From: a virus
Taxonomy: Duplodnaviria > Caudoviricetes
DNA length: 64,000 nt
Reading direction: 5' to 3' (one strand)
IMG/VR virus record: IMGVR_UViG_3300010167_001484
Location: 32,001-96,000 of that record
Part shown: piece after piece, positions 36,023 to 36,126 of the stretch
Layout of the letters: the number at the start of each line of letters is the position of its first letter
How positions within the stretch are numbered: the first letter of the stretch is position 1
The notes under the pieces: generated by a model
The model's input: the letters and a program-made list of their open reading frames with translations, nothing else
Told to the model about the DNA's origin: nothing
The model's database searches: none
Made by a program: the position numbers and the translations under genes

Positions 36023-36126
36023 AATCGTATAAATATACGAAAAAATCGTATAAATATACGAAGTGTGAGTCTTGCCCATATCGCAGCGAGCATTTCAGTG
36101 AAATTTATTAAATAAATATACGAAAT
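36023..36126. repeat. Dispersed ~100-bp palindrome-array element, copy 1
   Basis: TCGTATAAATATACGA at 36025 and 36046, core CCATATCGCAGCGAGCAT at 36076, half-degenerate third site 36108; second copy at 63204. Confidence 0.9.

Follow-up and report, generated by a model that had tools for sequence, protein, structure and literature searches.

The closest described arrangements come from phage repressors, from ArgR/AhrC and from two kinds of recombination site. The OR, OL and OD operators of lactococcal phage TP901-1 are bound by a hexameric CI protein, and phage lambda carries the operator sets OR1-3 and OL1-3. ARG boxes, the sites of ArgR/AhrC, are tandem 18-bp AT-rich palindromes separated by 2-3 bp (20-21-bp period), and in some operons the hexamer also occupies a further box at a distance. 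Among recombination sites, res of Tn3/gamma-delta comprises three dimer-binding subsites of unequal lengths and spacings in about 115 bp and needs resolvase, and loxP has 13-bp arms around an 8-bp spacer and needs Cre. The SPBRE of Bacillus prophage SPbeta is a dispersed operator of about 15 bp bound by the master repressor MrpR, which has a tyrosine-recombinase fold; it was known as an in silico prediction for a long time before its binder came to light, and it occurs as single motifs at ten promoters (PMC10516654).

A cassette of roughly 100 bp was found in three intergenic copies in the 214-kb genome of an uncultured termite-gut phage (214,046 bp, 33% G+C; the habitat is consistent with the sequencing runs). 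Two copies lie within the window, the 64,000-nt stretch that was analysed (bases 32001-96000 of the source record), and one lies outside it; positions are those of the window unless given as genome positions. The cassette is a real, conserved and modular cis-element. It is read here, with a probability of about 0.5, as a cassette of three operators through which a DNA-binding regulator, dimeric or oligomeric, would gate three operons.

In gene direction, the cassette consists of the exact 16-mer TCGTATAAATATACGA twice at a 21-bp period, a GC-rich core and a third site. In copy 1 (36023-36126, + strand), which follows an HNH homing-endonuclease gene (35341-36015), the exact 16-mers are located at 36025-36040 (O1) and 36046-36061 (O2, 21 bp past O1), the GC-rich core 18-mer CCATATCGCAGCGAGCAT at 36076-36093 on the + strand (offset +51), and O3 at 36108-36123; this last is a half-operator, TTAAATAAATATACGA, with 3 mismatches, in which the right arm ATAAATATACGAAAT is kept and the left arm is lost, and the RBS GAGGT follows just after it at 36128. 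Copy 2 (63204-63306, + strand) is located between a 166-aa ORF (62690-63190) and the gene for a 261-aa protein, with exact 16-mers at 63206-63221 (O1) and 63227-63242 (O2, again 21 bp further), the identical core 18-mer at 63257-63274 on the + strand, and a third exact 16-mer (O3) at 63288-63303, 61 bp past O2 and about 15 nt 5′ of the RBS. The sequence-only reading had described two intergenic copies in direct orientation, each with the 16-mer twice at 21-bp spacing, the 18-mer at +51 and a third palindrome. The coordinates bear out the arrangement and the orientation, both copies being co-oriented with the genes; the third palindrome stands as exact in copy 2 (63288), whereas the site at 36108 in copy 1 is degenerate, with the right arm only. 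A scan of the full genome for further copies revealed the third element (genome 139785-139882), beyond the window, with sites at genome 139785, 139806 and 139867 and the same 21-bp period. Its core has diverged, matching that of copies 1 and 2 at 12 of 18 positions, and the centre of its third palindrome is TT, not AA. The O2-to-O3 spacing is 62, 61 and 61 bp in copies 1, 2 and 3, respectively.

Once the flanks are read, the full palindrome is 18 bp, (A/T)TCGTATA-WW-TATACGAA, so that the tandem O1-O2 comprises two 18-mers with 3 bp between them. The palindromes are of dimer size (14-18 bp class) and represent one repeated sequence, with AA and TT centres switching freely between sites; in total, the genome holds eight exact 16-mers and one half-site, all in three co-oriented intergenic cassettes. 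A search of the window for the 16-mer at ≤3 mismatches gave 14 matches against 1.74 expected, a number reached in none of 100 shuffles, and the chance expectation for the core 18-mer was 0.00 occurrences; together these values rule out chance. Mini-palindromes with 4-bp arms in the GC cores (TCGC-A-GCGA, GCGA-T-TCGC and CTCG-N6-CGAG) were set aside as expected by chance at that arm length, and weight is given to the GC-richness of the cores only. Logan contigs of the source run break exactly inside the O1-O2 tandem (36037-36052); the repeat fragments assemblies at k = 31, so related phages may be split at cassettes in public assemblies.

Compared with the CI operator sets of TP901-1 and lambda, the cassette has the same general plan, with several copies of one palindrome, neighbours about two helical turns apart, sites at the start of an operon and a distal site that would be reached by looping. 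It differs in that no repressor gene was recognised in this phage, which looks virulent and T4-like (214 kb, nearly one-stranded gene layout), and in its placement at three distant loci without a recognisable promoter between the sites. The tandem geometry of 18-bp palindromes is like that of ARG boxes, but the half-site is CGTAT rather than the TGAAT of ArgR, and there is no link to arginine genes; compared with NrdR and Zur sites, Spo0A boxes and ARG boxes, the half-sites mismatched throughout, and only the ARG-box geometry fitted. SPBRE, to which the cassette is likened by description and not by sequence, is also a conserved motif repeated in intergenic regions across a large phage genome, but as single motifs, unlike the fixed triplets seen here. 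With the PF00589 model, the lead from SPbeta and MrpR turned up no recombinase-fold gene in the phage genome. Three subsites are shared with res, although the phage has no match to the resolvase family, and TTCGTATA / TATACGAAGT are common to the arms and those of loxP, although the 7-bp arms of the cassette enclose a 2-bp spacer and not a crossover spacer of 6-8 bp. The cassette can be regarded as a variant of dispersed operator systems, with perfect sites, a fixed geometry and three loci.

Outside this genome the element is rare. The AA-centred or tandem 16-mer was absent from all other IMG/VR contigs, in which the only matches were 51 single, fully palindromic chance matches, and the tandem pattern had no match in JGI metagenome contigs. 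A tandem scan of 185,579 species genomes returned one place only, on a 141,940-bp contig (G001) binned in a Bacteroidaceae MAG. This carrier contig is syntenic with the phage, with 86 proteins in common, mostly at 30-65% identity (about 50%), and it contains one cassette, two genes downstream of the position equivalent to that of copy 3. On the gene strand, the carrier cassette reads O1 (TT centre), 4 nt, O2 (AA centre), 22 nt, the GC block CTCGTCCCTGCGAG, 22 nt and, as its third site, the half-site ATAAATATACGAAA, which is followed by AGGTGA and the ATG of a baseplate-wedge homologue. Its 16-mers are identical to those of the phage, with a 20-bp period and an O2-O3 distance of 74 bp, and the spacings across the four cassettes (21, 21, 21 and 20 bp; 62, 61, 61 and 74 bp) are near whole helical turns. 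Nothing aligns between the phage and carrier cassettes outside the sites, and the GC core is unrelated; thus, only the sites and the layout are conserved. The earlier claims that spacing is kept while linkers diverge, and that a multi-subsite element has been selected for its geometry, are both strengthened by this second phage. The carrier contig also has a gene for a stand-alone 136-aa Spo0A_C domain (G001:C1 120093-120503, E = 1.4e-27), for which this phage gave no match; together with the RBS usage, the gene points to a probable spore-forming Firmicute host, despite the Bacteroidaceae bin.

Conservation in relatives, which the sequence-only reading had made a point of, is borne out by the carrier contig and does not extend to five other relatives of similar divergence, one of them complete with terminal repeats, which had no cassette site at ≤2 mismatches. 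At 23 primase-based relative loci, neither the site nor an analogous repeated palindrome was present. The baseplate-region proteins of the phage are closer to those of the carrier than to those of the other relatives, and this, with the patchy distribution and the shifted position, shows that the cassette moves with mosaic exchange. In one of the relatives (G005), a 17-bp palindrome of its own, CAGTGTAAWTTACACTG, is repeated five or six times, together with GC-rich blocks (C1, about 41370-42070). The repeats are spread over 700 bp between replication genes and this relative's homologue of the weakly sigma-like gene described below, on the upstream side of the homologue, and may represent operators of a comparable kind or an origin, with another specificity.

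The phage genome has about 284 ORFs, nearly all on the + strand. All three cassette copies are intergenic and oriented with transcription, and they end 2-25 nt before an RBS and start codon. Downstream of copy 1 are a 74-aa ORF (for which no informative relatives were found), a macro-domain protein (52% identity to its relative P0002, on a 218,791-bp contig), primase and ribonucleotide reductase (RNR). Copy 2 is followed by the acidic, Gly-rich 261-aa protein (GTG at 63332; no relatives in IMG/VR), which heads an array of small proteins, and copy 3 has a 1084-aa protein as its 5′ neighbour and the baseplate module as its 3′ neighbour. No paralogy was found among the genes 3′ of the three copies.

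A single-block promoter-like motif, TTTCGTTATAG (block TTCGTTATA), is present 27 times on the + strand and not once on the - strand, mostly 27-90 nt 5′ of starts (for example, at 7340, 14888, 25097, 27109, 46322 and 53890), and a second motif, wAACCTTwTATAwT, is found mainly in the structural region. The promoter block of the relatives is aTCGTTATa, and in two of them (G002 and G005) it stands directly before the sigma-like homologue; the promoter system therefore appears to be common and the palindromes accessory. A reading of TATAAATA as a T4 late promoter was rejected, since this 8-mer lies mostly within genes here. Searches within the cassette copies for an intrinsic terminator, a + strand sigma-70-type promoter and a clean phage promoter motif (TTCGTTATA or AACCTT type) were negative; copy 3 holds an off-spacing ACCTT-CAA-ATAAT with one extra spacer base. 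On a genome map covering the TTCGTTATA and AACCTT-type motifs only, each of the three cassettes falls in a separate stretch that is among the four longest lacking both motifs (61.7-78.3, 87.0-107.6 and 128.7-154.7 kb). By a rough estimate, three random points would each fall in such motif-free stretches with p of about 0.02. The cassette of the carrier relative likewise lies within a 37-kb stretch without its main TCGTTAT promoter motif.

The half-site of the cassettes recurs in a perfect 31-bp palindrome, TTCGTATAAATT-TATATAT-AATTTATACGAA (44477-44507), which begins 2 nt past the stop codon of ORF 44208-44474 and ends 60 nt before ORF 44568-45389, the latter having a weak Sigma70_r2 likeness (E = 0.003 to 0.04). 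Each half resembles the half-operator O3 of copy 1, and the whole reads as two inverted half-operators and possibly as a terminator hairpin too. Elsewhere in the genome, TTCGTATA is rarer than composition predicts (6 background copies), so its reuse in the 31-bp palindrome is probably not accidental. Through this half-site, the weakly sigma-like gene that follows would come under the regulator of the cassettes as well. A near-site with 2 mismatches, TCGTATAAATGTACGT (44372-44387), inside ORF 44208-44474, may be an auxiliary site or chance.

When copy 1 was compared by blastn with 50,697 phage records (2.3 Gb), one notable match was obtained, of 33/38 positions to O1-O2 (E = 2e-3; short and AT-rich), in the temperate Clostridium perfringens phage vB_CpeS-1181 (MW478292.1, 32748-32785). 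The matched pair lies where the gene for the annotated repressor (QTZ83018.1) and the early genes diverge, which is the expected place for the operators of a putative lysis-lysogeny switch. It resembles O1-O2 in its AATCGTA...TACGAAAAA arms and 21-bp period, with more TCGTA/TACGA half-sites between it and the RBS of the first early gene; it differs in that the inner 6 bp are not the same and the second site is degenerate. The XRE-type repressor of vB_CpeS-1181 has no homologue in this phage or its relatives, and the weak similarity of this repressor to a small tagged protein was judged spurious. A literature search by phage name returned no paper on its regulation; the paper that names it is reportedly a genomic study of C. 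perfringens beta-2 toxin genes.

Candidates for the binding protein were sought by domain searches and phyletic profiling. The phage genome gave no match to the tyrosine recombinase model PF00589 (the control matched in 14 of 14 genomes), none to the serine recombinase model PF00239 at E ≤ 0.05 and none to ParB (PF02195), so that the recombinase or ParB-like gene looked for on the strength of the sequence-only reading did not appear among the Pfam matches. HTH_3 (XRE-type repressor), Mor and Spo0A_C were equally without a match in the genome. A batch scan of 112 small non-structural proteins yielded a single Pfam HTH, an HTH_17 protein (20812-21096) that is missing from the carrier relative and four other relatives; its gene, of the MerR/excisionase type, lies a few hundred bases upstream of a TnpB element and may be an IS607-type remnant. 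By phyletic profiling, one credible protein, DUF29-like and of 149 aa, was limited to the two carriers and an incomplete relative (G004), whereas no phage protein was credibly common to the two carriers alone, and no protein segment was conserved only between them. An ORF with 80% identity to the carrier relative was rejected as a regulator, being the tail-tube protein. As no recognisable regulator was found, the binder would be either a phage protein that cannot be recognised as such or a host or prophage factor.

Two readings compete most closely with the operator reading: an element acting in RNA, as a processing site or leader, and an origin bound by an initiator. The first, an element of the intercistronic leader in which hairpins or O1/O2:O3 duplexes would form an RNase III-type processing site, an mRNA stabiliser or a translational operator, appears unlikely. 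It would account for the placement of all copies on the transcribed strand, 5′ of an RBS and in long stretches without the two mapped promoter motifs; the third site of copy 3 is the exact reverse complement of O1/O2, O1 and O2 of the carrier relative are exact complements, and the folds of copies 2 and 3 are better than those of shuffles (z = -3.6 and -4.5, respectively). The helices, however, are invariant while the loops vary, which is the reverse of structured RNAs, and the predicted base pairs show no compensatory change in the four-sequence comparison. The three copies are without a common fold, the four-sequence consensus retaining only trivial O1/O2 pairing; the stems are AT-rich, with 6-7 bp around a 2-nt centre; one O3 arm is lost in copy 1 and in the carrier relative; and the covariance models of Rfam 15 gave no match at E ≤ 5 around copies 1 and 2. 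The flips between AA and TT centres would make no difference to a symmetric dimer; they agree with binding of a symmetric protein to duplex DNA, as do the loss of an O3 arm in two cassettes and the near-integral spacings. Protein-bound DNA operators are therefore favoured over RNA by the lack of covariation, the centre flips, the near-whole-turn spacings and the Clostridium pair. Replication origins or initiator-binding sites, in the form of lambda-type iterons with dyad symmetry dispersed like the several origins of T4-type phages, are also rather improbable. Such origins are suggested by the phased dyad-symmetric repeats beside an unusual GC-rich block, by the position of copy 1 directly upstream of the primase cluster and by the G005 palindrome cluster, which with its GC-rich blocks adjoins replication genes. 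Yet the GC skew stays positive throughout and does not inflect at any copy, which leaves the secondary origin of the sequence-only reading without support; the orientation to genes is fixed, with all four cassettes abutting an RBS, which an origin does not need; and no initiator candidate was found, while the sites are wholly missing from five relatives. Of the other functions raised at the outset, a parS-like site has no ParB to go with it, and a packaging signal is unlikely for a site repeated three times.

It is distinctly improbable that the cassette serves site-specific recombination (res/hix/lox-like) or is a small mobile element of the MITE/PATE type, ending in palindromes. Three dimer-type subsites over about 100 bp are indeed as in res, and the AA centre, not being palindromic, lends each site a direction, as at the crossover sites of serine recombinases, but neither a tyrosine nor a serine recombinase domain was found in the genome, the 2-bp centre misfits lox-type sites, and recombination between direct repeats would delete essential replication and structural genes. 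The deletion junctions between 36.1 and 63.2 kb that a res/dif- or loxP-like reading would predict had no counterpart in the Logan contigs of four DNA runs, which represent this same phage only, show no joints and merely break at the repeat; no RNA run is on record as carrying the phage. A mobile element would agree with the patchy occurrence among relatives, with the two-gene shift of position in the carrier and with the greater similarity of the baseplate-region proteins to the carrier than to other relatives; however, the core and linkers have diverged but the sites have not, unlike recent spread, and no target-site duplication is visible. Most doubtful are promoter-like decoys or variant promoters for the phage's own transcription factor, proposed on the grounds that the half-site TTCGTATA is one base from TTCGTTATA. 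The latter is confined to the + strand and lies mostly just 5′ of genes, its counterpart in the relatives is aTCGTTATa, and operator and promoter have TCGT-N5-TATA in common. Against this, a palindrome would fire both ways, yet there are almost no - strand genes; G002 and G005 have a sigma-like homologue after a TCGTTATA-type motif but no palindromes, G003 also has the homologue without palindromes, and the one-base deletion puts the -10-like part out of register. Overall, the cassettes are still best read as first proposed, as sites for a dimeric sequence-specific protein.

Under the operator reading, a sequence-specific dimeric regulator of the helix-turn-helix type would recognise TCGTA-N6-TACGA and bind cooperatively to the two 18-bp palindromes, which, being 3 bp apart, would present themselves on the same face of the helix. 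The regulator would then bridge to the third full or half site, 6-7 helical turns downstream, with the GC-rich core looped out. Because the third site lies 2-25 nt before the RBS, the complex would gate transcription into, or starting within, the downstream operon, that is, the macro-domain/primase/ribonucleotide-reductase run, the small-protein array with the acidic protein at its head, and the baseplate module. The sequences themselves show the sites, with their exact conservation, spacing, orientation and recurrence in a second phage, and the likeness to the clostridial pair; that a protein binds them, forms a loop and acts as a repressor, and which protein this is, we infer.

The binder may come from the phage, as a protein not recognised as such, or be a repressor of the host or of a prophage. 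That the phage does not itself encode the regulator that reads the cassettes, which would then be, for example, the CI-like repressor of a resident clostridial prophage or a regulator of host state, is a tentative possibility at low odds. If so, a virulent-type phage would wire three operons, and possibly the sigma-like gene, to the prophage or physiological state of its host; alternatively, the regulator would be titrated by the numerous perfect sites present once phage genomes replicate. In that case, jumbo phages that are only distantly related would be exchanging the cassette as a portable module of regulation, and a virulent-type jumbo phage would be listening to the lysogens or the physiology of its host. 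If the binder is instead a phage protein, it would represent a new repressor family without a detectable HTH signature. How large uncultured gut phages regulate their genes has hardly been described, and the chief value of the cassette is as a clean bait for the regulator of an uncultured jumbo phage.

Three further features of the genome were recorded. Pfam Tad8 (type II Thoeris inhibitor) is matched at E = 8.8e-11 by a 101-aa protein, which is encoded at 43903-44208, shortly before the weakly sigma-like region, and is likely the product of an anti-defence gene. A tail-tube gene in the region genome 125829-128634 is unusually conserved, with 66-86% identity to all five relatives, and is flanked by three homing-endonuclease genes (HNH, GIY-YIG/NUMOD3 and HNH-like). 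QueF-like and QueC genes are present at genome 4625-6647 (E = 2e-30 and 5e-77, respectively), and the phage thus carries part of the 7-deazaguanine pathway, outside the window.
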